DNA of 64,000 bases, from positions 144,524 through 208,523 of the forward strand of contig JANLHP010000017.1 in assembly GCA_024654445.1 (NCBI GenBank). The letters run 5' to 3'. The number at the start of each line of letters is the position of its first letter. The first letter of the stretch is position 1. The position numbers and the translations under genes were made by a program. The DNA is from Candidatus Curtissbacteria bacterium. GTDB taxonomy: Bacteria > Patescibacteriota > Microgenomatia > Curtissbacterales > GWA2-41-24. Positions 4,518 through 59,384 of this stretch are shown here, one piece after another. Below the pieces are notes generated by a model, which did not search any database, was not told the origin of the DNA, and was given only the letters and a program-made list of their open reading frames with translations.

Positions 4518-5513
4518 TTAGGTTTTTGATTTTAAACTTTTGACTGTACGATCTTCGATAGTTTGTACTGTTGATATTTTTGACGAAAGGCGGGCGAAGC
4601 GGGTGTTGACGTCGTCGCTGGAATTTGCGGCGTTTTTGATGTGTTTTGTGAGAAGCGAGAGTGAGCCACTAAATTTTTCTGTTTCGTCGGCGATTTCTCG
4701 AAGGGCTGCCAAAATTTGGCCGGCCTGTCTTTCGATCTTATTGCCTTCAAGCGACATAATGATTGCGCGTAAATATGCGTAGAGGGTGTTGGGGGAAACC
4801 GGGCGGACGCGCTTTCTGTAAGCGTATTCTTCGAGTTCCGGACTTTCGGTGAGAATTTCGTAGTAGACGACTTCGGAAGGAATATACATGAGGGCAAAAT
4901 CAATTGTTCCTTCCTGCGGTTTGATATATTTACTGGAAATGGCGTCTATGTGTTTTTTGACATCGTTTATAAATGCTTTTCTGTAAAGAAGTTTTTCCTT
5001 TTCGTCCTGGGCTTTGGACATTTTGCGGATATTTTCCATTGGGAATTTGGCGTCAATTGGAATAATCCCTTGTTCTAACTTTAGAGCGGCATCCACAATT
5101 TCTCCGGATTTAAAAGCGTACTGAAGATGGAAATTTTGTTTCGGGAGGGATTGGCCTAAAAGATCTTTCAGTCCTGCCTCCCCCATTTGGCCACGCATCT
5201 TTGGAGACCTCAGAAACTCCTGCAGGTCTTTCATTCCCCTGCCAAGTTCTGTCATTTCGCCTACGGATTTGGAGACTTCAGAAATTACTTGCGCGGCTCT
5301 ATCCAGTCTTTCATTGATTGCTTTTGTTTGCCGAACCATCGAATCTGTCGTGTTGTCCATAGAACCGCGCATGTCGGAAACAAGTTGTGAGAGGAGCTTG
5401 GTAGTTTCGTCGCTCTTTTTGTTGTCTGCGAGTTTTTTGATCTGCAAGTAGAGGAGCCCCATTGTGGCTAAAACTAGAACACCAACTACAAGCAGAATAG
5501 TCTGGGAATCCAT
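4518..5513 (-). CDS. rmuC: DNA recombination protein RmuC
   Basis: 331-aa ORF with N-terminal TM, a coiled-coil region and a C-terminal block IDAKFPMENIRK...FALMYIPSEVVYYE characteristic of the RmuC family. Confidence 0.8.
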   Translation of the reverse strand: MDSQTILLVVGVLVLATMGLLYLQIKKLADNKKSDETTKLLSQLVSDMRGSMDNTTDSMVRQTKAINERLDRAAQVISEVSKSVGEMTELGRGMKDLQEFLRSPKMRGQMGEAGLKDLLGQSLPKQNFHLQYAFKSGEIVDAALKLEQGIIPIDAKFPMENIRKMSKAQDEKEKLLYRKAFINDVKKHIDAISSKYIKPQEGTIDFALMYIPSEVVYYEILTESPELEEYAYRKRVRPVSPNTLYAYLRAIIMSLEGNKIERQAGQILAALREIADETEKFSGSLSLLTKHIKNAANSSDDVNTRFARLSSKISTVQTIEDRTVKSLKSKT

Positions 5514-5560: not shown

Positions 5561-5676
5561 GTCATTCTGGGGAACGGAGCGACTCCAGAATCTGATTAAG
5601 GCTGATTCTGGACAAGCCCTTCGACTTCGCTCATGGCCTATTAAGGGCCGTGAGTTTATCGAACGGCCAGAGTGAC
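5561..5676. repeat. GC-rich palindromic repeat element, copy A1 (MITE/RPE-like), intergenic
   Basis: Terminal inverted repeats gtcattctgg...ccagagtgac. Internal hairpins gagcgactccagaatc/gattctgga. Core motif cccttcgacttcgctca shared with 12743-12849, 27139-27160 and 10172-10196. Confidence 0.6.
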
Positions 5677-7001: not shown

Positions 7002-9305
7002 ATGAAAATCTTAAAAGTATTTACTGCCTTCCTTACCCTTTTTATTAATCTTGTCACTTTTGTCGGAGACGTAACTATTTGGGGGTTTCGAGGGATTTTT
7101 ATTTGGGTTGAGGGCTTAAGAAGAGTTCTGCGGATTCCAAAGAGGATGCCCAGTAGATTCAAGGGTGTTACTAAGGTCTTCCGACATCCCGTTATCCGTG
7201 AAGATTTCAGTTTTAAGGTGGGGCTTTTAATGATTTTTGTTTCAATGGGATTAATTTGGTTTGCGACAAAAGATCTTCCAAGCCCAAGACAGCTCGAAAC
7301 TAGAGAAGTGCCATTGACAACTAAAATATACGATAGAAATGGAGAACTACTTTTTAATGTGTACACAGACCAAAACAGAACTGTTGTTCCACTTTCCGAA
7401 ATTCCAGACAATTTAAAATACGCAACGATTGCGATTGAGGATCAGGATTTTTATAAACATAAAGGCTTCGATGTCTACGGCATTATAAGAGCAGCTAGAG
7501 AAACAGTGTTCCAAGGAGATATCCAAGGTGGTTCGACGATAACGCAACAGTTAGTTAAAAGCGCCTTTTTGACGCCGGAGCGAACTATAACAAGAAAGGT
7601 TAAAGAATTATATTTGGCTTTCCGGGTAGAAATGGCATACCCCAAAGACAGGATACTTGAAATGTATCTCAACCAAGTTCCGTATGGCGGAACGGCCTGG
7701 GGAGCAGCCGCAGCTGCCGAGCAATATTTCGGGAAAGATGTTAAGGATTTGACGCTCGCGGAATCCGCGCTTCTTGCGGGATTGCCCCAAGCACCAACTT
7801 ACTATTCCCCGTTTGGGCAAGATAAACAAAGGTCAGTCGAAAGACAGAGGCAGGTTTTGACAAGAATGGTTGAAGAAAATTACATCACAAGAGAGCAAGC
7901 CGAAGAAGCCGCAGCGCAACCGTTGGAATACAGGTCCGCGGCAACCGACATTAGGGCGCCTCATTTTGTAATGTTCGTCCGTGAATACTTGGCTGAAAAA
8001 TATGGCGAGGCTGCTGCCGCGCAAGGCGGGTTAAAGGTGACTACAACTCTTGAGTTGAAAGTTCAAGAGATGGCCCAAGGCCAAGTAACGGAAAACATCG
8101 ACAAGCTGAAAGCATTAAGAGTTGGAAACGGGGCTGCCGTAGTTACTAAACCACAAACCGGTGAAATCTTAGCGATGGTAGGGTCAAAAGACTTTTTCGA
8201 TACAGAAAATGACGGTAATGTAAACGTAACTGTTGCCAATAGACAACCAGGGTCTTCCATTAAACCAATTAATTACGCGACAGCGCTCGCAAAAAGACTT
8301 ATTACGCCGGCTACCGTGATTATGGACGTGCCAACTACTTTTTCGGGAGGACCACAACCTTACAGGCCTGTCAATTACGATGGTAAATTTCATGGTCCTG
8401 TTCAGGTAAGGTTCGCGCTTGCTAATTCTTACAATATTCCGGCTGTAAAGGTTTTAGGGTTAGTTGGCGTCGGCGAGATGATAAAAATGGCCAGGGAAAT
8501 GGGTATTACTACTTTTGAGGATGAGTCGCGATATGGGCTTTCTTTAACTTTAGGAGGAGGAGAGGTTAAGATGACAGAAATGGCGACTGCGTTTGGCGTT
8601 TTTGCCAACGAAGGTGTCCGCGTAGATCTTGTCCCCGTTTTGAAGGTTGAGGATTCCAACGGCAGAGTTCTTGAAGAGTTCAAGCCAAAAGCGGGTAGGC
8701 GAGTTCTTTCTCCGGAGATTGCATTTTTGATTTCTTCGATACTTTCCGACAACGGCGCAAGAAGTGCTGCTTTTGGCGCAAACAGCATGCTTAATATTAG
8801 AGGAAAGACTGTCGCTGTAAAAACCGGGACTACAGATGATAAGAGAGATAACTGGACGATTGGTTATAACCCTAGCTTTTTGGTTGTAACTTGGGTCGGC
8901 AATAATGACAACTCTCCGATGCATCCTTCACTTTCTTCCGGTGTAACCGGTGCTGCTCCTATTTGGAACGGAATAATGACGGCGCTTTTGAATGACAAGG
9001 TGAATGAAGCATTCAAAGTACCTTCGGGTGTTGTTGGCAAAGAAATTTGCACCTTGACCGGGGGGACAAAAAACGAGGGATGCAATAATCGATTTGAATA
9101 TTTCTTAGCTGGGACAGAGCCAACTAAAGATACATTCGCGAGATCTAAAGTGTGGATAGACAAGGAAACGGGAAAGGTTGTTCAGTCGGGATCACCAAAC
9201 GCGGAAGAGAAAGACGAAGTTATTATTTCGGACCCCTACTCTAAACAAGACTTCTGTGCGAGTTGTCCTAGGCCGGAGGCTTCCCCAAGTCCGCCCCCTA
9301 CATGA
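7002..9305 (+). CDS. class A penicillin-binding protein (GT51 transglycosylase + transpeptidase), PBP1A-like
   Basis: GT51 motifs EDQDFYKHKGFD and GGSTITQQLVK. Transpeptidase motifs SSIKP (SxxK) and KTGTT. N-terminal TM anchor. Confidence 0.85.
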   Translation: MKILKVFTAFLTLFINLVTFVGDVTIWGFRGIFIWVEGLRRVLRIPKRMPSRFKGVTKVFRHPVIREDFSFKVGLLMIFVSMGLIWFATKDLPSPRQLETREVPLTTKIYDRNGELLFNVYTDQNRTVVPLSEIPDNLKYATIAIEDQDFYKHKGFDVYGIIRAARETVFQGDIQGGSTITQQLVKSAFLTPERTITRKVKELYLAFRVEMAYPKDRILEMYLNQVPYGGTAWGAAAAAEQYFGKDVKDLTLAESALLAGLPQAPTYYSPFGQDKQRSVERQRQVLTRMVEENYITREQAEEAAAQPLEYRSAATDIRAPHFVMFVREYLAEKYGEAAAAQGGLKVTTTLELKVQEMAQGQVTENIDKLKALRVGNGAAVVTKPQTGEILAMVGSKDFFDTENDGNVNVTVANRQPGSSIKPINYATALAKRLITPATVIMDVPTTFSGGPQPYRPVNYDGKFHGPVQVRFALANSYNIPAVKVLGLVGVGEMIKMAREMGITTFEDESRYGLSLTLGGGEVKMTEMATAFGVFANEGVRVDLVPVLKVEDSNGRVLEEFKPKAGRRVLSPEIAFLISSILSDNGARSAAFGANSMLNIRGKTVAVKTGTTDDKRDNWTIGYNPSFLVVTWVGNNDNSPMHPSLSSGVTGAAPIWNGIMTALLNDKVNEAFKVPSGVVGKEICTLTGGTKNEGCNNRFEYFLAGTEPTKDTFARSKVWIDKETGKVVQSGSPNAEEKDEVIISDPYSKQDFCASCPRPEASPSPPPT

Positions 9306-10032: not shown

Positions 10033-10216
10033 GTTAGTACAATGTTATAACACTGCGTCGATTTTGTCAACCTGTTTTATTAACTCGTTTTTGTCCTGGT
10101 GATTCGAATCAGCAGGACAAAATTGCTGTGCACTCTTACAATTCAACAATTTAACGATTAAACAATTTATTCTGTGAATTTGCCCTTCGATTTCACTCAG
10201 GGTAAATTTGTTGAGC

Positions 10217-10920: not shown

Positions 10921-11062
10921 ATCCTATCGCTTCGCTCCAGGATGACAACATTCAATTCTGATTGTCGTTCTGGAGGGAGTACTACGACCGATAAGAAAGC
11001 TTGTTTCTCGCAGACTCGAAATAGAATCTCGACTCGCTACGCTCGCTCGAAGAATATATAAT
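10921..11062. repeat. GC-rich palindromic repeat element, composite/degenerate copy B1
   Basis: Carries cgcttcgctccaggatgac (reverse complement of the TIR gtcatcctggagcgaag). Shares internal block tttctcgca.actc.aaatagaatctc with copy B2 (13493-13638). Confidence 0.5.
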
Positions 11063-11069
11063 TTAGGTC

Positions 11070-12488
11070 ATGAACAGAATTTATGTGACTACGGCTATTC
11101 CGTATGTAAATGCTGCGCCGCACATTGGGTTTGCCCTGGAAACAGTGCAGGCAGACGCAATCGTACGGTTTTACCGTGCACAGGGATGGGATGTATTGTT
11201 TTCTTCCGGAACAGACGAAAACAGTCTTAAAAATGTACAGGCGGCGAAAGCAGAAGGACTAAAAGTTCAGGAACTGGTCGACAAATACGCAAGGCAGTTT
11301 GAAAATCTAAAAGATGCGCTTAATCTTTCATGGGACGTTTTTAATAGAACTAGCCAAAAACATCATTTTGAGGGAGCACAAAAATTCTGGAGTTTATGCC
11401 GGAGCGAAGATATATATAAAAAGAAGTATCGTGGCCTTTACTGCGTTGGGTGCGAAGCGTTTTATACGGCAGCCGAGATCGCGGATGGTAAATGTCCTGA
11501 TGGACATTCGAACATAGAGGAAATCGAGGAAGAAAATTATTTTTTTAAACTTTCAAATTACCAAAAGTTCCTTGAGGATCTAATTTCTAAAGATAAACTG
11601 AAAATTGTTCCCCGGACCAAAAAGCATGAGGTTCTTTCCTTTATTAAAGGTGGGCTTGAGGATTTCAGCATCTCGAGGTCTGTCGAGAGAGCGAGGGGTT
11701 GGGGTGTTCCTGTTCCAGGAGATGAATCTCAAGTGATGTACGTTTGGTTCGACGCGCTGACTACTTATTTAACTGCTCTAGGGTTTGGAACAGACGACGA
11801 TTTATACAAAAAATATTGGGTGGAAAACCCTAACCGTCTGCATGTAATTGGTAAAGGGATAATAAGATTCCACGCAGTTTATTGGCCGGCAATACTTGCT
11901 TCTGCTGGGATAAAACTTCCGACAGAAGAATTTGTTCACGGATATATAACCGTTGAAGGGCAAAAGATTTCGAAAACTTTGGGGAATGTAATTGACCCAT
12001 TTGATTTGGTAGAAAAATTTGGGGTTGAAGCAGTCAGGTACTACTTGTTGCGCGAGATTCCGTCTTGGGGAGACGGAGATTTTTCGATCACTAGATTTAA
12101 GGATTTGTATAACGGAGAACTCGCTAACGGAATTGGTAATTTGGTGGCGAGAGTTGCAAGACTTGCAGCAGACACAAATCTGAGTTTGCCGGAAAAAAAG
12201 AATTTTACATTTAAAAAAGCAGTTTCTGATAATCTTAAAACCTTTCGGTTCGACCAGGCAATAATGGCTCTTTGGAATGAGGTCTCGATTTTGGATAAGA
12301 AAATTAACGACGAAAAGCCTTGGGAGTTAGAAGGCGAAGAGCTTAAAAAATCCATTACCCCGATAGCGCAAGAGATAAGAGAAATCGCGTTTAATCTTTC
12401 GCCATTCTTGCCTCAAACGAGTGGGAAAATTTTGAATCAATTCACCGGAAGAATTTCCGCAGAAAAACCAATTTTCCCAAGGATTTAA
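11070..12488 (+). CDS. metG: methionyl-tRNA synthetase (short form)
   Basis: Class I aaRS. N-terminal YVTTAIPYVNAAPHIGFA (HIGH region). KMSKS-like KISKTLGN. Zn knuckle CVGCE...CPDGH. Confidence 0.9.
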   Translation: MNRIYVTTAIPYVNAAPHIGFALETVQADAIVRFYRAQGWDVLFSSGTDENSLKNVQAAKAEGLKVQELVDKYARQFENLKDALNLSWDVFNRTSQKHHFEGAQKFWSLCRSEDIYKKKYRGLYCVGCEAFYTAAEIADGKCPDGHSNIEEIEEENYFFKLSNYQKFLEDLISKDKLKIVPRTKKHEVLSFIKGGLEDFSISRSVERARGWGVPVPGDESQVMYVWFDALTTYLTALGFGTDDDLYKKYWVENPNRLHVIGKGIIRFHAVYWPAILASAGIKLPTEEFVHGYITVEGQKISKTLGNVIDPFDLVEKFGVEAVRYYLLREIPSWGDGDFSITRFKDLYNGELANGIGNLVARVARLAADTNLSLPEKKNFTFKKAVSDNLKTFRFDQAIMALWNEVSILDKKINDEKPWELEGEELKKSITPIAQEIREIAFNLSPFLPQTSGKILNQFTGRISAEKPIFPRI

Positions 12489-13483
12489 TGAAATTAATTG
12501 ATACTCATGCCCATTTGGACCTGCCTGCCGGCAGGCAGGTTTCTGATTTGGATGGGTGGCTTTCGCGTGCAAAAGAAGCAGGAGTTGGAAAAATAATTTG
12601 TGTGGGGACTTCGATTGATGCTTCTAAAAAGTGTATCGAGATCGCGGAAAAACATTCAGATGAAGACTTAGAGATTTTTGCCAGCTGCGGGATTCACCCG
12701 GAAGATGGAAAAGACGACATTAAAAAATATGGCCACTCCTCTGTCATTCTGAGGAGCGAAGCGACTCCAGAATCAGATTCTGGACAAGCCCTTCGACTTC
12801 GCTCAGGGCCTATCAAGGGCCGTGAGTTTACCGAATCGGCCAGAATGACGGATAGTCTGGCTGGTTGCATGGCTGAGTTAAAAAAGGTAGCTCAATCGTC
12901 GAAAAAAGTTGTGGCAATTGGAGAGTGCGGATTGGATTACCGTTTAACAACTGACAACGAACAACTGACAACTGACGAAGAGAAAGAGTTTCAGAGAAAG
13001 CTTTTTAAAGACCAGATAAAACTCGCAGCTGATCTGAATTTACCTTTAATTATTCATTGCCGTAATGGCTGGGATGAAATATTCGACCTATTAACAATTA
13101 ACGATAGACAGAGTCCTGCGGTCCTCGCTAACGCTGCGGGCTTACAACAATCAACACTAAAGGGCGTTTTTCACTCCTGGACTGGAGACTGGACTGCTGC
13201 CGAAAAAGCGCTCGGTTTGGGTTTTTACATTTCTTTTTCTGGAATTTTAACTTTTCGGAACGCTCCTCTTATCCAAGAGGTCGCAAGAAAGGTGCCGCTT
13301 GAAAGGGCTGTTGTGGAAACGGATTCCCCTTTCCTTTCGCCAGAACCTTTGCGCGGCAAGAAAAATGAACCTAAAAATGTTAGAATTACAATCGAGTTTC
13401 TAGCCGAACTGCGAAATACTTCCCTTGAAGAAATTGCTGACGTGACGGCTCGAAATGCCGAAAAGTTATTCGGGTTAAGTTAG
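12488..13483 (+). CDS. tatD: TatD-family metal-dependent hydrolase/DNase carrying an in-frame repeat-element insertion
   Basis: MKLIDTHAHLD..., IGECGLDY, ETDSPFLSPEPLRGKKNEP and FYISFSGILTFRN match TatD. An extra ~40-aa segment (VILRSEATPESDSGQALRLRSGPIKGREFTESARMTD) is encoded by repeat copy A2. Confidence 0.8.
   Translation: MKLIDTHAHLDLPAGRQVSDLDGWLSRAKEAGVGKIICVGTSIDASKKCIEIAEKHSDEDLEIFASCGIHPEDGKDDIKKYGHSSVILRSEATPESDSGQALRLRSGPIKGREFTESARMTDSLAGCMAELKKVAQSSKKVVAIGECGLDYRLTTDNEQLTTDEEKEFQRKLFKDQIKLAADLNLPLIIHCRNGWDEIFDLLTINDRQSPAVLANAAGLQQSTLKGVFHSWTGDWTAAEKALGLGFYISFSGILTFRNAPLIQEVARKVPLERAVVETDSPFLSPEPLRGKKNEPKNVRITIEFLAELRNTSLEEIADVTARNAEKLFGLS
12743..12849. repeat. GC-rich palindromic repeat element copy A2, inserted in-frame within tatD
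   Basis: gtcattctgaggagcgaagcgactccagaatcagattctggacaagcccttcgacttcgctcagggcctatcaagggccgtgagtttaccgaatcggccagaatgac. Near-identical to copy A1 (5561-5676) with the same TIRs. Confidence 0.65.
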
Positions 13484-13492
13484 CCCATCCAT

Positions 13493-13638
13493 GTCATTCC
13501 GGAGCGAAGTTCTGCAATTTGGCAGAACGAAGTGAAACGAGAACGTATTTCTCGCAAGCTCAAAATAGAATCTCTAGTTTCAGATCCTATTCGAAGAAAA
13601 GCTTTGCTTATCGGTCGCTTCGCTCCCTCCAGGATGAC
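13493..13638. repeat. GC-rich palindromic repeat element copy B2
   Basis: Clear TIRs gtcattccggagcgaag ... cttcgctccctccaggatgac. Internal hairpin gttctgc/gcagaac. Shares a middle block with B1. Confidence 0.6.
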
Positions 13639-27084: not shown

Positions 27085-27117
27085 TGGATTAAAGGTACCA
27101 CCTAGCTGAGCTTCGGT

Positions 27118-27270
27118 GCAAGCGTGAGCCCTTCGACTTCGCTCAGGGTCATGACTATTTGAGGCTAATTCCTGCGGCGGGAGCTCATGTGAAAAGATTA
27201 TAGGTCTGCTTCGAGGCTGGAAGGTAATTCGAGGCTATTTGTGCTCAGGCTCGAGCGTGAGATTGAAGCT
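27118..27270. repeat. GC-rich repeat element (family C1) carrying core motif cccttcgacttcgctcaggg
   Basis: 27139-27160 gagcccttcgacttcgctcagggtc matches the core of copies A1/A2. Followed by internal direct repeats cttcgaggct / attcgaggct / gctcgagcgtgag. Confidence 0.5.
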
Positions 27271-27435
27271 ATCCCCTAGCCACGATTTTTAGCTCCATTT
27301 AGGCCTCATTTAGCTTACTATGGGACTTGACAAAGGAGCCTTACTATGCTATACTTCACGCTTGTAAGATCTCCACTATGGGCTTCTGCCCAGGATTCCC
27401 ACAAATATATATGTGGGTTTTTAGTGGGAAAATAT

Positions 27436-56898: not shown

Positions 56899-58038
56899 TT
56901 GAAGTTTAAGATTGAACAGGGCCAACTGACCAAAACATTACTTTCTGTTAACAAATCTCTTCTTTCGAAGGTAAATCTTCCTATTCTTTCTAATGTTTTG
57001 TTTTCTGTTTCCGGCAACAAGCTGGAAGTTCTTTCAACAAACCTCGAAACAGCAACCAAGGTAGTTGTTGATTGTACCGGTGAAGCTGACGGAAAAACGA
57101 CTCTTCCGGGCAAAACCCTTCTGGAGTTTGTTTCACAGTTGCCTGAGGGGGAGATACTTTTGGAGAAACTTGGTGAAGAGGTGATTGTTTCTACAAAGGG
57201 ATACAACGCAAGGTTTGCGACTCTCGCGGTCGAGGATTTTCCGGCAATTCCGAAGATAGAAAAAGGAAAGCATATAAAGCTCGACCCGAAGGATTTTATG
57301 AGGGCTGTCTCGAGGGTGGCGATGAGTGCCGCACAAGACGAAGGAAGGCCCATTTTAACCGGAGTCCTTTGTGAATTTGAGAAAAAAACCCTTTCTTGTG
57401 TTGCGACAGATGGTTACAGGTTAAGTTTCCAATCCGTGCCTTATGAGGGGGATATTCCCTCCTCGCTTAAAATTGTCGTCCCTTCAAAGTCTTTAATTGA
57501 AGCAGCCAAAATTGTCTCCGAGCTTTCTAGCGAAATAGGAGAAAACAAGATTGAGCTTTTGATAGCTGATGGTTTGAATCAGGTCAATTTTAAGATTGGA
57601 AATGTGGAGTTTACTTCCAGACTCATCGAAGGAGAATTTCCTAATTGGCAGAAAATTATCCCCAGCACGTTTGCTTCGAAGGCTAGGGTTTCCAAAGAGG
57701 ACTTTATTAAGGTGATTAGAATCGCGTCAATTTTTGCGCGGGACTCAGGAAACATAATCCGCTTGCAGCTTTTGGCAAATGGCGCAAAAGGTGCAGTACT
57801 CAAGGTTTTTGCAAACAATGTGCAAGTAGGGTCGAATGAAGCCGAAGCCGAGGTTGAGCTTACCGGCAAAGGTGGGGAAATCGCATTTAATTTTAAGTAT
57901 CTGCTGGAGATGCTTTCTTCTATTGAATCTTCTGATGTCGAATTTGAGATGATAGAAAGCTTAAATCCTGGAAGGCTGACGGTTCCCGAAGACAAGAGTT
58001 ACTTTCATATCGTGATGCCAGTTAGATTGCAGACATAA
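56899..58038 (+). CDS. dnaN: DNA polymerase III beta sliding clamp
   Basis: MKFKIEQGQLTKTLLSVNKSL..., three-domain clamp, 379 aa. TTG start preceded by gaggag. Confidence 0.9.
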   Translation: MKFKIEQGQLTKTLLSVNKSLLSKVNLPILSNVLFSVSGNKLEVLSTNLETATKVVVDCTGEADGKTTLPGKTLLEFVSQLPEGEILLEKLGEEVIVSTKGYNARFATLAVEDFPAIPKIEKGKHIKLDPKDFMRAVSRVAMSAAQDEGRPILTGVLCEFEKKTLSCVATDGYRLSFQSVPYEGDIPSSLKIVVPSKSLIEAAKIVSELSSEIGENKIELLIADGLNQVNFKIGNVEFTSRLIEGEFPNWQKIIPSTFASKARVSKEDFIKVIRIASIFARDSGNIIRLQLLANGAKGAVLKVFANNVQVGSNEAEAEVELTGKGGEIAFNFKYLLEMLSSIESSDVEFEMIESLNPGRLTVPEDKSYFHIVMPVRLQT

Positions 58039-58119
58039 CAACTGACCACTGACATTTGACAACATGATGAAGTTCAGGTTCAGAGATTTTAAAGTTACAA
58101 AGACGCAGTCGTCTTCAGG

Positions 58120-58437
58120 ATGAGTATAAGGGTTCTTACTAAAAAGTATTTTCCGACCGAAGAAAAATATTTATTAATTGACCAGATTGTTAGGGCAGCA
58201 AACTCGATTGTTTTAAACATAGCAGAAGGGTCTGATCGTGGTACTGACAAAGACTTTGCGCTTTTTCTAAACCGTTCTCATACGTCTCTTAACGAGGTTG
58301 TTGCTTGTTTAGATATTGCCTTAGAAGAGGGATACATCACAATAAAAATTCACGAAGATTACTTAGGGCATGCAGCTGAATTGGGAGATCAAATTACTGC
58401 GTTTAGGAGAAAATTACTTATTAGTCCATCCAAATAA
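58120..58437 (+). CDS. four-helix-bundle protein (TIGR02436, 23S rRNA IVS protein family)
   Basis: LNIAEGSDRGTDKDFALFLNRSHTSLNEVVACLDIALEEGYI matches the family pattern AEG..R.s.kdF..Fl..a.gSl.E. Confidence 0.7.
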   Translation: MSIRVLTKKYFPTEEKYLLIDQIVRAANSIVLNIAEGSDRGTDKDFALFLNRSHTSLNEVVACLDIALEEGYITIKIHEDYLGHAAELGDQITAFRRKLLISPSK

Positions 58438-58500
58438 TAAGCAAAAGTTGTCAGTTGTCAGTGGTTATATGTCAGTTGTTTTTATTGTATTCTTAAGGTT

Positions 58501-58803
58501 GTGTTTACTCCGATTGGGACTCTTCTAAAAACTTTGCCAAAAAGATCAAGAACGCCCGAGGCGATTGTTGCGCTGCACGTGAGGCAAGTATTTGGGAGTT
58601 CGCTTAAAAAGGTTTGTGCCGACTTACCTGAGACTTCTTTGGTGCTTGTTCGCGCCTCTACTTTCAAGGGCGGAGTGCTTAATGTAATTGCACCCTCTTT
58701 GCTTTCCGCGGAGCTTCATATGCGCGCTGGGGGGCTAATACAAGACATTAATGAAGCCCTCGGACGGAAGGCAGTAAAGCGGCTAAAGTTTAGGCAGAGT
58801 TAA
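58501..58803 (+). CDS. DciA-like DUF721 protein
   Basis: 100 aa. C-terminus ...GGVLNVIAPSLLSAELHMRAGGLIQDINEALGRKAVKRLKFRQS is typical of DUF721. Located next to dnaN, as DciA often is. Confidence 0.55.
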   Translation: MFTPIGTLLKTLPKRSRTPEAIVALHVRQVFGSSLKKVCADLPETSLVLVRASTFKGGVLNVIAPSLLSAELHMRAGGLIQDINEALGRKAVKRLKFRQS

Positions 58804-59384
58804 AGGTCTTCATGGCTTGGTTCTGTTCTTAATTCCGGATGTTGTTGCAGAAAAGTCGCGAGGTTAGTGGTCGGAAAGTGCCATATTTCTACAATTAGAC
58901 TACTGATAGGATTACCGAAAACTATTACTCCTTTTGAGCCCCAGAAGTGACCGGGGGCTGCAAATCCGTGTTGGCCGTAGATGAGTGCCTCCGGTTGTCC
59001 GAATTTTGCGATGTATCCATTTAAAGATCCTTTTTCTTTGGCGATTACCGGCTCTTCAATGAGCTGAACCTTGTCGTTTTCTATCTCGACTGTTGTTTGC
59101 CTGTTTTCGTTAGTTGTCGGATAAACGTAGATTGTTTTGCCGTTCTGCTGCTCGATTTTAATTGGTTCGCCGACTGCTTGTCTTAGCTCTTCTTCAGTAG
59201 TTTTGCCGGGGGTTACTTTGCCGAGCCATTTTACTTCGTCGTCCGAAGGTTTTCCCAGCAGGTTAAATAAAAAGACTGATGTTATGAACAAAGATGCTAA
59301 ACCAAGCAGTAAGAGCGGAGACTCTTTTTTTAGAAAAATTGAAATTCTATTTAGTGAGCTTTCGGTCATATTAAAATTCCACAC
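58800..59384 (-). CDS. hypothetical membrane-anchored protein
   Basis: 194-aa ORF with an N-terminal TM (LLLLGLASLFITSVFLFNLL). Directly downstream of the giant gene. Possible alternative start ATG 59369. Confidence 0.4.
   Translation of the reverse strand: MWNFNMTESSLNRISIFLKKESPLLLLGLASLFITSVFLFNLLGKPSDDEVKWLGKVTPGKTTEEELRQAVGEPIKIEQQNGKTIYVYPTTNENRQTTVEIENDKVQLIEEPVIAKEKGSLNGYIAKFGQPEALIYGQHGFAAPGHFWGSKGVIVFGNPISSLIVEIWHFPTTNLATFLQQHPELRTEPSHEDL

Follow-up and report, generated by a model that had tools for sequence, protein, structure and literature searches.

A CGTC-type palindromic repeat read in frame in tatD of a Curtissbacteria genome, and its hairpin-bracketed GIY-YIG relatives

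Introduction

Palindromic repeats can lie inside genes without breaking the reading frame. The Rickettsia palindromic elements (RPEs) described by Ogata et al. in 2000 are palindromic and sit in frame inside housekeeping genes, at positions compatible with the protein fold (PMC10969869, PMC3733652), and in-frame insertions have also been reported for GTAG and CGTC repetitive extragenic palindromes (REPs), ERIC, BOX and other repeats (PMC3733652, PMC10969869). Here we describe a repeat, element A2, that is read in frame inside the tatD gene of an uncultured groundwater bacterium, represented by a metagenome-assembled genome (MAG) of Candidatus Curtissbacteria (Microgenomates). It lies in a stretch of 64,000 nt, which we call the window (assembly GCA_024654445.1, contig JANLHP010000017.1, positions 144,524 to 208,523 of the forward strand).

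The REPs were sorted by Di Nocera et al. in 2013 into GTAG- and CGTC-tagged superfamilies (PMC3733652). Members of the CGTC superfamily have a CGTC (or TGTC, CCTC) tag, a stem of 8-9 bp that nearly always starts with A-T, T-A, a loop of 4-5 nt (some families have other loops) and a short CCA tail (PMC3733652). Head-to-head dimers with the tags outside predominate, and copies inside known genes have been described (PMC3733652). The class includes dRS3 of Neisseria as well as RPE-6 and RPE-4 of Rickettsia conorii (PMC3733652). No dedicated transposase was found for it, and other enzymes were suggested as possible actors (PMC3733652).

The best explanation of our observations, to which we assign a probability of about 0.72, is that the repeat in tatD is a selfish palindromic element, a gene-less miniature of a nuclease-bearing element that was spread by that nuclease.

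Results

A repeat dimer read in frame in TatD

The host gene (12488-13483, + strand) encodes a TatD/YcfH-type hydrolase of 331 aa. At residues 83-122 (nt 12734-12853, + strand) the product carries 40 extra residues, HSSVILRSEATPESDSGQALRLRSGPIKGREFTESARMTD, which are found, among the aligned orthologs, in the window TatD only. Residues 83-123 (nt 12734-12856) read HSSVILRSEATPESDSGQALRLRSGPIKGREFTESARMTDS, flanked by GIHPEDGKDDIKKYG and ...KKVVAIGECGLDY, and HSSVILRSEATPESDSGQALR... is a stretch of the translated insert. In an alignment of the 120 best homologues, none of the 119 other orthologs has residues in the columns after position 82, and the solved TatD/YcfH structures leave query residues ~78-130 unaligned. 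The initial annotation, made from the letters of the window, had placed a palindromic element in frame inside tatD at 12735-12860 and had proposed that it adds about 40 residues between the GIHPE and VVAIGECGLDY blocks; it bracketed the repeat correctly, and both the size and the site of the addition are borne out.

Two CGTC-type hairpins, joined head to head as a dimer, make up the tatD insert. Element A2 spans 12742-12850 on the + strand if its tag bases, TGTC...GACG, are included; the repeat proper (12743-12849, 107 nt) has the ends GTCATTCTGA...CCAGAATGAC. Unit a (12743-12774) reads GTC-ATTCTGA-(GGAGCGAAGCGACT)-CCAGAAT-C, with the loop in parentheses, and is also present in more than 120 metagenomic contigs. 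Unit b, also on the + strand, begins with its 5' stem (GATTCTGG, a stem with compensatory changes among copies) and the canonical loop start ACAAG (12776-12788), continues through a nested 51-nt hairpin module in the loop (12789-12839, core CCCTTCGACTTCGCTCAGGGC) and closes with the 3' stem and tag, CCAGAATGAC (12840-12849). The predicted folding energy of A2 is -48.5 kcal/mol (z = -5.5 against shuffles), and its GC content is 54% against 42% for the window. Rfam (at gathering thresholds) and ARAGORN gave no match over the window, and these null scans rule out the element as a known RNA, intron or tRNA-derived repeat.

A 32-nt probe matches only two sites in the window, with none expected in shuffled sequence. 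The second site is A1, an intergenic sister copy of 116 nt (5561-5676, + strand, tags CGTC...GACA) between a divergent RmuC gene on the - strand and a small open reading frame (ORF) on the + strand. Identity between A1 and A2 is 89-95% in ungapped blocks and 84% over 117 columns that include a 10-nt indel; a 10-nt spacer present only in A1, CTGATTAAGG, would place a TAA in the frame used by tatD.

Comparison of the sequences supports the view that the repeat entered tatD and that tatD was not the source of the repeat, because the orthologs lack the segment and the element also occurs elsewhere, between and inside genes. The alignment to orthologs that had been proposed as a check upholds this direction, and the reverse, descent of the intergenic copies from tatD, is opposed by the dispersed copies together with the orthologs without the segment. 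In a second TatD (P0061, contig L001), another site is occupied by unit b of the same repeat family; this copy includes the same nested module and encodes the peptide SGQALRLHSGQLKGSESYRTARMT. An empty-site (presence/absence) allele was sought among the near-identical fetched contigs, and none was found.

Repeats are a known cause of misassembly, and we therefore weighed the reading that a chimeric join or a misplaced copy created the tatD insert. Indeed, one open frame of contig L106 (~1082-1137) runs from a MurB-like N-terminal part into a TatD-like C-terminal part, and the joint, which coincides with an element copy, could be either a repeat-mediated gene fusion or a chimeric assembly at the repeat. 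For the window gene such an artefact is very improbable: the two flanks are parts of a single TatD, joined in frame and in the right order, with no TatD residues missing or duplicated, and 45 further in-frame cases among the matches listed come from independent assemblies.

TatD appears intact apart from its loops

The 331-aa product matches PF01026 (TatD_DNase) over its full length (profile positions 1-253 of 253, E-value 1.6e-70), and its best relatives in the PDB are YcfH/TatD. It is identical to an NCBI protein from a Curtissbacteria MAG, while its next best relative is 57% identical. TatD proteins usually have 255-275 residues; aligned to the solved structures, the window TatD has three extra stretches, the largest of which runs from GIHPEDGKDDIKKYG to the helix preceding VVAIGECGLDY. 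The invariant or near-invariant residues of the family are all kept, namely HxH (H7, H9), E146 (in GECGLD), H190, H229 and D279. In the AlphaFold model, built on the 120-sequence alignment, the protein is predicted to form a normal (beta/alpha)8 TIM barrel with a mean predicted local distance difference test (pLDDT) score of 86, and Foldseek aligns the model to the solved TatD/YcfH structures 6L25 and 2GZX with target-normalised template modelling (TM) scores of 0.90-0.91. With its full-length PF01026 domain, conserved metal-site motifs and predicted TIM-barrel fold, the protein has the features of the TatD/YcfH family.

The insert, 40 Ser/Gly/Arg-rich residues, is modelled between two helices after beta-strand 3. 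Residues ~82-115, which separate helix 74-81 from helix 116-135, are predicted as coil and have pLDDT ~48-68. Structure prediction had been proposed earlier as a check on whether the insert is an exposed loop: it appears as a low-confidence coil loop on an otherwise intact modelled barrel. It is thus predicted to be an appended disordered loop that is read through in the mRNA. We consider that the insert is tolerated, because it keeps the frame, contains no in-frame stop and falls in a loop. In the TIM-barrel topology, the loop after beta-3 comes out on the catalytic side, where the next helix starts. On this model the insert may affect substrate access.

The window protein is not alone in carrying such additions. 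Across the 120 aligned orthologs TatD is a mosaic, with lineage-specific inserts at ~10 loop positions, many of them encoded by palindromes (STSLKELRGAS, PSTSSGQ, LKLRGAK). This bears on the idea, raised in the initial annotation, that the insertion inactivated TatD and left a pseudo-allele that is merely still open. The insert is indeed large (40 aa) and near the substrate face, and the gene has two other lineage-specific inserts; however, the frame of 331 codons is unbroken, no family-invariant residue is missing, the model has high confidence over the whole barrel with a TM of 0.9 to solved enzymes, and the many orthologs with comparable inserts at ~10 loop sites suggest that these loops tolerate changes in length. 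The pseudo-allele therefore finds no support in the predicted structure or the sequence and is improbable. Because the ORF, the family-wide motifs and the predicted fold are intact, TatD looks functional, and the window TatD is most likely still active.

The repeat is an inverted pair of local hairpins

The 5' module GTCATTCTGRGGARCGRAGCGACTCCAGAATC, a pattern that fixes unit a only, was searched for in the metagenome collection, and the matches listed include more than 120 contigs; the counts below refer to these matches. In genome contigs, an overly strict 30-nt pattern based on the nested module had 2 matches. Copies are 55-116 nt long and follow a common plan of unit a, a spacer of 0 to ~30 nt and unit b. 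The consensus of unit a is YGTC-ATTCTGG-(GGAGCGAAGCGACT)-CCAGAAT-C, with a 14-nt loop, and that of unit b is G-ATTCTGG-(ACAAG)-CCAGAAT-GACR. Apart from its loop, unit b is unit a in reverse complement. The element thus consists of one hairpin unit in two inverted copies, and the head-to-head arrangement with the tags outside was seen in 118 of 118 short copies. Both stems are 7 bp long. The 5-nt loop ACAAG/CTTGT occurs in 71 units, and longer copies, A1 and A2 among them, have other small hairpins nested in the unit b loop. The 51-nt module that enlarges this loop in A2 is also present in A1, L003, L041 and L001, and it is absent from minimal copies of 55-56 nt. Only a single C or G lies between stem and spacer, where a CCA tail was not seen.

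The stems are maintained by compensatory change. As the search pattern fixed unit a only, unit b is an unbiased sample, and in its stem 95.6% of the cells are paired, with compensatory double changes at 3 of the 7 pairs (ATGCTGG/CCAGCAT, ATCCTGG/CCAGGAT, ATTCCGG/CCGGAAT and ATTCCAG/CTGGAAT, all of which keep the AT start); the covariation score was reached in 0 of 500 shuffles. The 3' end of unit b covaries with its local partner and not with the 5' end of the element, so the conserved structures are two local hairpins. Among 100 distinct copies listed, the base before the fixed GTC is C in 56 and T in 37, while the mirror base after GAC is A in 48 and G in 37. The ends left no trace of a target-site duplication, as direct repeats with k = 1 to 8 were no commoner at the junctions than when the flanks were permuted, and no extension of the palindrome into the flanks was found.

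The unit a loop GGAGCGAAGCGACT holds the heptamer GCGAAGC (for example at window positions 12755-12761), and the variants GCGGAGC and GCGTAGC occur. We take GCGAAGC to be an exceptionally stable DNA mini-hairpin with a GAA loop. This hints that the relevant folded form of the unit is single-stranded DNA rather than RNA.

Copies of the repeat in unrelated genes

The repeat family is dispersed, and its copies are often intragenic and in frame. Among the matches listed, 101 copies have distinct contexts; 46 of them are in frame inside long ORFs, meaning that an open frame runs at least 50 codons on each side of the copy, while 22 lie near an ORF end, 9 overlap one, 12 are clearly intergenic and 12 are too near a contig end to judge. 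Frame-breaking candidates in genes number at most 31 against 46 in-frame copies, where a ratio of 2:1 would be expected if the frame were irrelevant. Several of the ORFs that overlap copies end at the TGA within AATGAC. Moreover, orthologous insertions differ by multiples of 3, as at one site in an epimerase gene where contigs L103 and L118 carry 73 and 55 nt. The in-frame excess and these length differences argue for translation of the elements and against their removal from the RNA.

Pfam domains were sought in ten hosts: leucyl-tRNA synthetase (in its editing domain), a P-type ATPase, ClpB, DNA polymerase I (PolA), RecG, RecJ, cysteinyl-tRNA synthetase, Fpg, FolD and RecR. All are bona fide enzymes, and in most of them the domain alignment spans the insert. 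The in-frame copies are read in at least 5 combinations of frame and orientation, with sense readings such as VILGSEATPES-DSGQARM, HSGERSDSRI-DSGQARM and SFWGAKRLQN... and antisense readings such as HSGLSRIDSGVA... and HSGLSRIDSGVASLPRM. Since several frames and both orientations of the same DNA are in use, it is the DNA that is conserved and not the peptide. Protein searches with the element-encoded peptide returned 1 and 9 candidates with word-index methods and, for a 41-aa query searched exhaustively against 1.8 billion proteins, 3 significant matches, as a query of this length falls short of significance in so large a set; none of these counts is a measure of rarity.

Among the other Curtissbacteria copies, one lies between rpsO and pnp in L003 and one between genes in L002. 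The genome-resolved copies belong to Curtissbacteria and one unclassified bacterium.

These data also speak to the reading that the insert has been co-opted, either because the hairpins act in the tatD mRNA or DNA (in stability, pausing, termination or supercoiling) or because the peptide forms a new interaction surface. The strong predicted structure of A2 (z = -5.5), the stem covariation, which tells of a maintained hairpin, and the position of the insert, modelled to start on the barrel's catalytic face where the helix that follows beta-3 has its N-terminus, would all fit. However, the same DNA occurs in dozens of unrelated genes in varied frames and orientations, and between genes; the insert is common to no ortholog, its peptide is predicted to be disordered, and maintenance of the hairpin is equally expected if a mobilising enzyme recognises it. 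We regard co-option as having little probability.

Some further copies and repeat-derived peptides deserve mention. The metG gene of L002 has an in-frame insert of 9 residues, DPSTSLRTG (8395-8421, encoded by the core hairpin CCTTCGACTTCACTCAGGAC), which is absent from the window methionyl-tRNA synthetase. In L083 (~4615-4680) an element copy lies at the start of an intein-like sequence (C...HNT motifs) in a large surface protein, and L020 and L083 contain many repeat-derived QDD/QND peptides.

Relatives with a GIY-YIG gene between the units

Gene-bearing versions of the repeat exist, with a GIY-YIG ORF between the units. When the fetched contigs were screened for ORFs bracketed by hairpin heads, 5 of the 11 candidates proved to be one family of ~98-aa proteins, and a tblastn search with this family gave 14 matches in 824 kb, corresponding to ~10 distinct genes. 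Nine of these, on nine distinct contigs, are bracketed, with a + head lying 41-65 nt upstream and a - head at 4-86 nt downstream. The gene-bearing element is ~400 nt long. The start codon lies a few bases beyond the end of unit a, and unit b follows or overlaps the 3' end of the ORF. Several ORFs stop at the TGA inside CCAGAATGAC; those of L080 and L092 end ...ILDKPE-TGA, with the TGA supplied by CCAGAATGAC. In L007, unit b has the same type of nested hairpin as A2. The tenth gene, in L011, is the most divergent CPR (Candidate Phyla Radiation) copy and is flanked by another CGTC hairpin, TGTC-ATCCCCAC-GAAG-GTGGGGAT-CCAG. In L034 and L109, element copies stand in tandem with a constant short spacer (AACACCATCGACT in L034, GAGGTC in L109) and adjoin the GIY-YIG gene.

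The bracketed proteins match PF01541 (GIY-YIG) with E-values of 1e-10 to 1e-13 and consist of the minimal domain without extra domains; their nearest solved chains are the UPF0213 entries 1ZG2 and 1YWL. This places them with the stand-alone bacterial Slx1-like GIY-YIG proteins, which Dunin-Horkawicz et al. considered to be vertically inherited and probably repair enzymes (PMC1564403). In contrast to that description, many members in our data behave like cargo of a small mobile unit.

The association extends beyond the CPR. Homologues on plasmids and megaplasmids occur mainly in Rhizobium, Sinorhizobium, Sphingobium, Shinella, Neisseria, Azospirillum and Novosphingobium, genera that overlap those of the described CGTC REPs (PMC3733652). 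Of 12 homologues inspected outside the CPR, 9 are bracketed by their own inverted YGTC hairpins (Neisseria gonorrhoeae, Sinorhizobium meliloti, Azospirillum lipoferum, Novosphingobium aromaticivorans, Planktothrix, Spirosoma, Neorhizobium, Aeromonas and Sphingobium), and the Photobacterium homologue has a hairpin on one side only. In GC-rich genomes, about half of the matches of a general detector (YGTC followed by a 7-bp stem, 1 mismatch allowed) are expected in shuffles; it was replaced by genome-specific head motifs searched in 40-kb neighbourhoods. All 5 heads found within 40 kb in S. meliloti lie at most 332 nt from the nuclease gene, as do all 4 in A. lipoferum at most 109 nt from theirs, while in Spirosoma heads also occur elsewhere as gene-less pairs ~80 nt apart. 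The bracketed gene lies between sufB and sufC in A. lipoferum (L132), and the nuclease gene between gltA and lpxB in S. meliloti (L131), where the 3' end of a second copy directly upstream forms a tandem array; it lies between MmeI and DrmA in a DISARM locus of Planktothrix (L134) and between the glycoside hydrolase genes GH43 and GH127 in a polysaccharide-utilisation locus of Spirosoma (L133). Such positions, in operons or loci that are conserved apart from the gene, are typical of small insertions.

A gene between two units could have come there in another way. The GIY-YIG gene might be a secondary, homing-type parasite of the dimers that copies itself between the units, while the dimers spread by another route, through a transposase, a RAYT-like enzyme (of the REP-associated tyrosine transposase type) or replication or recombination slippage at the hairpins. 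Homing into a 55-56-nt site made of units a and b would equally give the order unit a, gene, unit b; for the CGTC class no dedicated transposase was found and other enzymes have been suggested (PMC3733652), and GIY-YIG enzymes are classic homing endonucleases (PMC1564403). Nevertheless, the bracketed proteins are minimal domains without a DNA-binding module, and such proteins have been grouped with the structure-specific Slx1 type and not with sequence-specific homing enzymes (PMC1564403). In addition, several ORFs run into unit b and use its TGA, which points to a long co-evolution as one unit, and the hairpin sequence changes along with the nuclease lineage across phyla. We therefore judge a homing origin, the main rival to a spread of the dimers by the nuclease, to be unlikely, at about one chance in a few.

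Other features of the window

The gene order around the insert is metG-tatD followed by a glycosyltransferase (GT2) gene, with PBP1 and Fic genes upstream, and is syntenic with the Curtissbacteria genome L002. The metG-tatD pair is flanked by elements of another, B type: B2 (13493-13638, + strand, 146 nt), just downstream of tatD, has the inverted ends TGTCATTCCGGAGCGAAG... / ...CGCTTCGCTCCCTCCAGGATGACA, and fragmented and rearranged pieces lie upstream of metG (10927-11030, no strand assigned). The ends of B-type elements, TGTCATYCYGGAG(G)GAGCGAAGCGAC, are similar to unit a in its first half and lack the return stem.

Within tatD, a perfect 20-nt palindrome unrelated to A2, CCTGCCTGCCGGCAGGCAGG (12520-12539, no strand assigned), is read in frame as LPAGRQ. 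According to the alignment, extra residues at this site are common only to the distant ortholog P0008, and at least 9 further fetched contigs contain the palindrome, which is also found once within an element (L112); it seems to form a dispersed family of its own. The third insert of TatD, SPAVLANAAGLQ (residues 209-220, window 13112-13147), falls in the most variable loop of the family, with low pLDDT, where 27 of the 120 orthologs have different inserts; no repeat matched it in the data examined. The tatD segment 12945-12976 (DNA AACAACTGACAACGAACAACTGACAACTGAC) encodes LTTDNEQLTTD and resembles ACAACTGAC-rich repeats that stand in inverted orientation at 58036-58063 and 58446-58480. This likeness may be coincidental, as the TTD motif is conserved in many orthologs. 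The latter repeats flank a 105-aa ORF (58120-58437) of the 23S rRNA-intervening-sequence protein family (PF05635).

The core of the nested module, CCCTTCGACTTCGCTCAGGGC (CCCTTCGAYTTCRCTCAGGGT), also occurs alone between genes at 27129-27149 and 10183-10203. The 260-nt spacer 27085-27345 looks structured and has no Rfam match. A weak tblastn match suggested a GIY-YIG gene at 58800-59384, which was rejected because no Pfam domain is found there.

Discussion

Taken on sequence features, the element fits a head-to-head dimer of the CGTC-tagged REP superfamily, now in the CPR. It shares with that superfamily the terminal CGTC/TGTC tag, a stem that starts with A-T, T-A and reads ATTC...GAAT (in dRS3 it is ATTCCC-N8-GGGAAT), variable spacers, DNA inserted between the partners and intragenic copies, notably in replication and repair genes. 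The loops agree in part, with 5 nt in the basic unit and 14 nt in unit a, and hairpins are often nested in a loop. The element differs in that its host phylum, Patescibacteria/CPR, is outside the five phyla of the original survey, about half of the copies are intragenic, and some copies have a GIY-YIG gene between the units, whereas that survey found no associated enzyme (PMC3733652).

The resemblance to RPEs had been noted in the initial annotation, which also held that such behaviour is rarely described outside Rickettsia. The first part stands: because the CGTC class, with its CGTC/TGTC tags, holds RPE-4 and RPE-6, "RPE-like" is an apt term, in a fuller sense than was meant there, and the repeat is palindromic, of a size (~100-150 nt) and habit like those of RPEs, in frame in tatD and 45 further listed ORFs, unrelated housekeeping genes among them, at sites judged compatible with the fold. 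[quoted passage not shown] Whereas each RPE family is described as encoding one conserved peptide, here at least 5 combinations of frame and orientation are read; moreover, the organism is a Curtissbacteria MAG and not a Rickettsia, and the sequence is different.

Two other systems are close in architecture. The REPIN/RAYT system (Bertels and Rainey 2011; PMC3116915, PMC3337134) likewise consists of two inverted REPs and a spacer that form one non-autonomous unit, without target duplication, and has a single small hairpin-flanked gene as its proposed mobiliser. However, its tag is GTAG and ours is CGTC, the covariation in our element describes two local hairpins and not one long hairpin, and an IS200/IS605-type tyrosine (HUH) transposase there stands against a candidate GIY-YIG nuclease here; the gene bracketed by our units is of the GIY-YIG type, and a RAYT gene elsewhere in the genome was not searched for. 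Similarly, bacterial MITEs are short and non-coding, with inverted ends, a longer gene-bearing relative and occasional in-frame fusions to ORFs (PMC10969869). Our element differs from them in leaving no target-site duplication, in having hairpin ends that are not simple terminal inverted repeats, and in having no transposase of the insertion sequence (IS) type.

From this architecture, the short dimers would be gene-less miniatures of the gene-bearing unit, as MITEs are of IS elements and REPINs of RAYT loci. We propose that the tatD insert is probably such a miniature of an element of ~400 nt, in which two units bracket a ~98-aa GIY-YIG gene. A structure-specific nuclease would then recognise the extruded hairpins in trans and copy gene-bearing and gene-less dimers alike, and purifying selection would spare only the insertions that are in frame and in loops. 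Such selection would explain why about half of the surviving copies lie inside conserved housekeeping genes.

Several points weigh against this explanation. No GIY-YIG gene was found within the 64-kb window, and the units have a 7-bp stem and no CCA tail, although relatives in L011, S. meliloti and A. lipoferum have stems of 8-9 bp and a CCA(G) tail. The homologues of Rhizobium K1/93 and Radiobacillus, the latter in a methyltransferase operon, have no flanking hairpins, so the association of hairpin and nuclease is not universal. Members of the E. coli YhbQ type are housekeeping genes. In addition, 13 nt of the 120-nt tatD insert lie outside the element (9 nt before it and 4 nt after) and are also absent from the orthologs. 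The length from GTC to GAC is not constant modulo 3 in the in-frame copies (6/18/22), and no rule of element length modulo 3 that would define the inserted unit was found among them; as the lengths take all residues modulo 3 and tatD has the 13 extra nt, they do not define one exact inserted unit. Finally, the number of open frames per element, 2.8 of 6 against a background of 2.1 of 6, is only a modest excess.

It is tempting to go further and to regard the CGTC REPs in general, from the tatD insert to RPE-4, RPE-6 and dRS3, as non-autonomous partners of an Slx1-like (UPF0213) GIY-YIG unit that mobilises the dimers, and in the CPR as a main source of lineage-specific loops in housekeeping proteins. 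We put this forward tentatively, at somewhat less than even odds. We found no literature that links GIY-YIG proteins with REPs or MITEs, or such palindromic repeats with the CPR, in a search whose coverage was incomplete.

For TatD, the findings mean that the 40 unusual residues are junk DNA read as protein and not a new domain, in an enzyme that is probably functional. They extend the RPE-like colonisation of genes to the CPR, with consequences for gene calling, alignment, protein-family clustering and structure prediction of CPR proteins. The arrangement of hairpin, GIY-YIG gene and hairpin recurs in the CPR, Alpha-, Beta- and Gammaproteobacteria, Cyanobacteria and Bacteroidota. This recurrent bracketed nuclease is a candidate answer to the question of how CGTC REPs and RPEs move, and one that can be tested in the cultivable Sinorhizobium, Azospirillum, Neisseria and Aeromonas.

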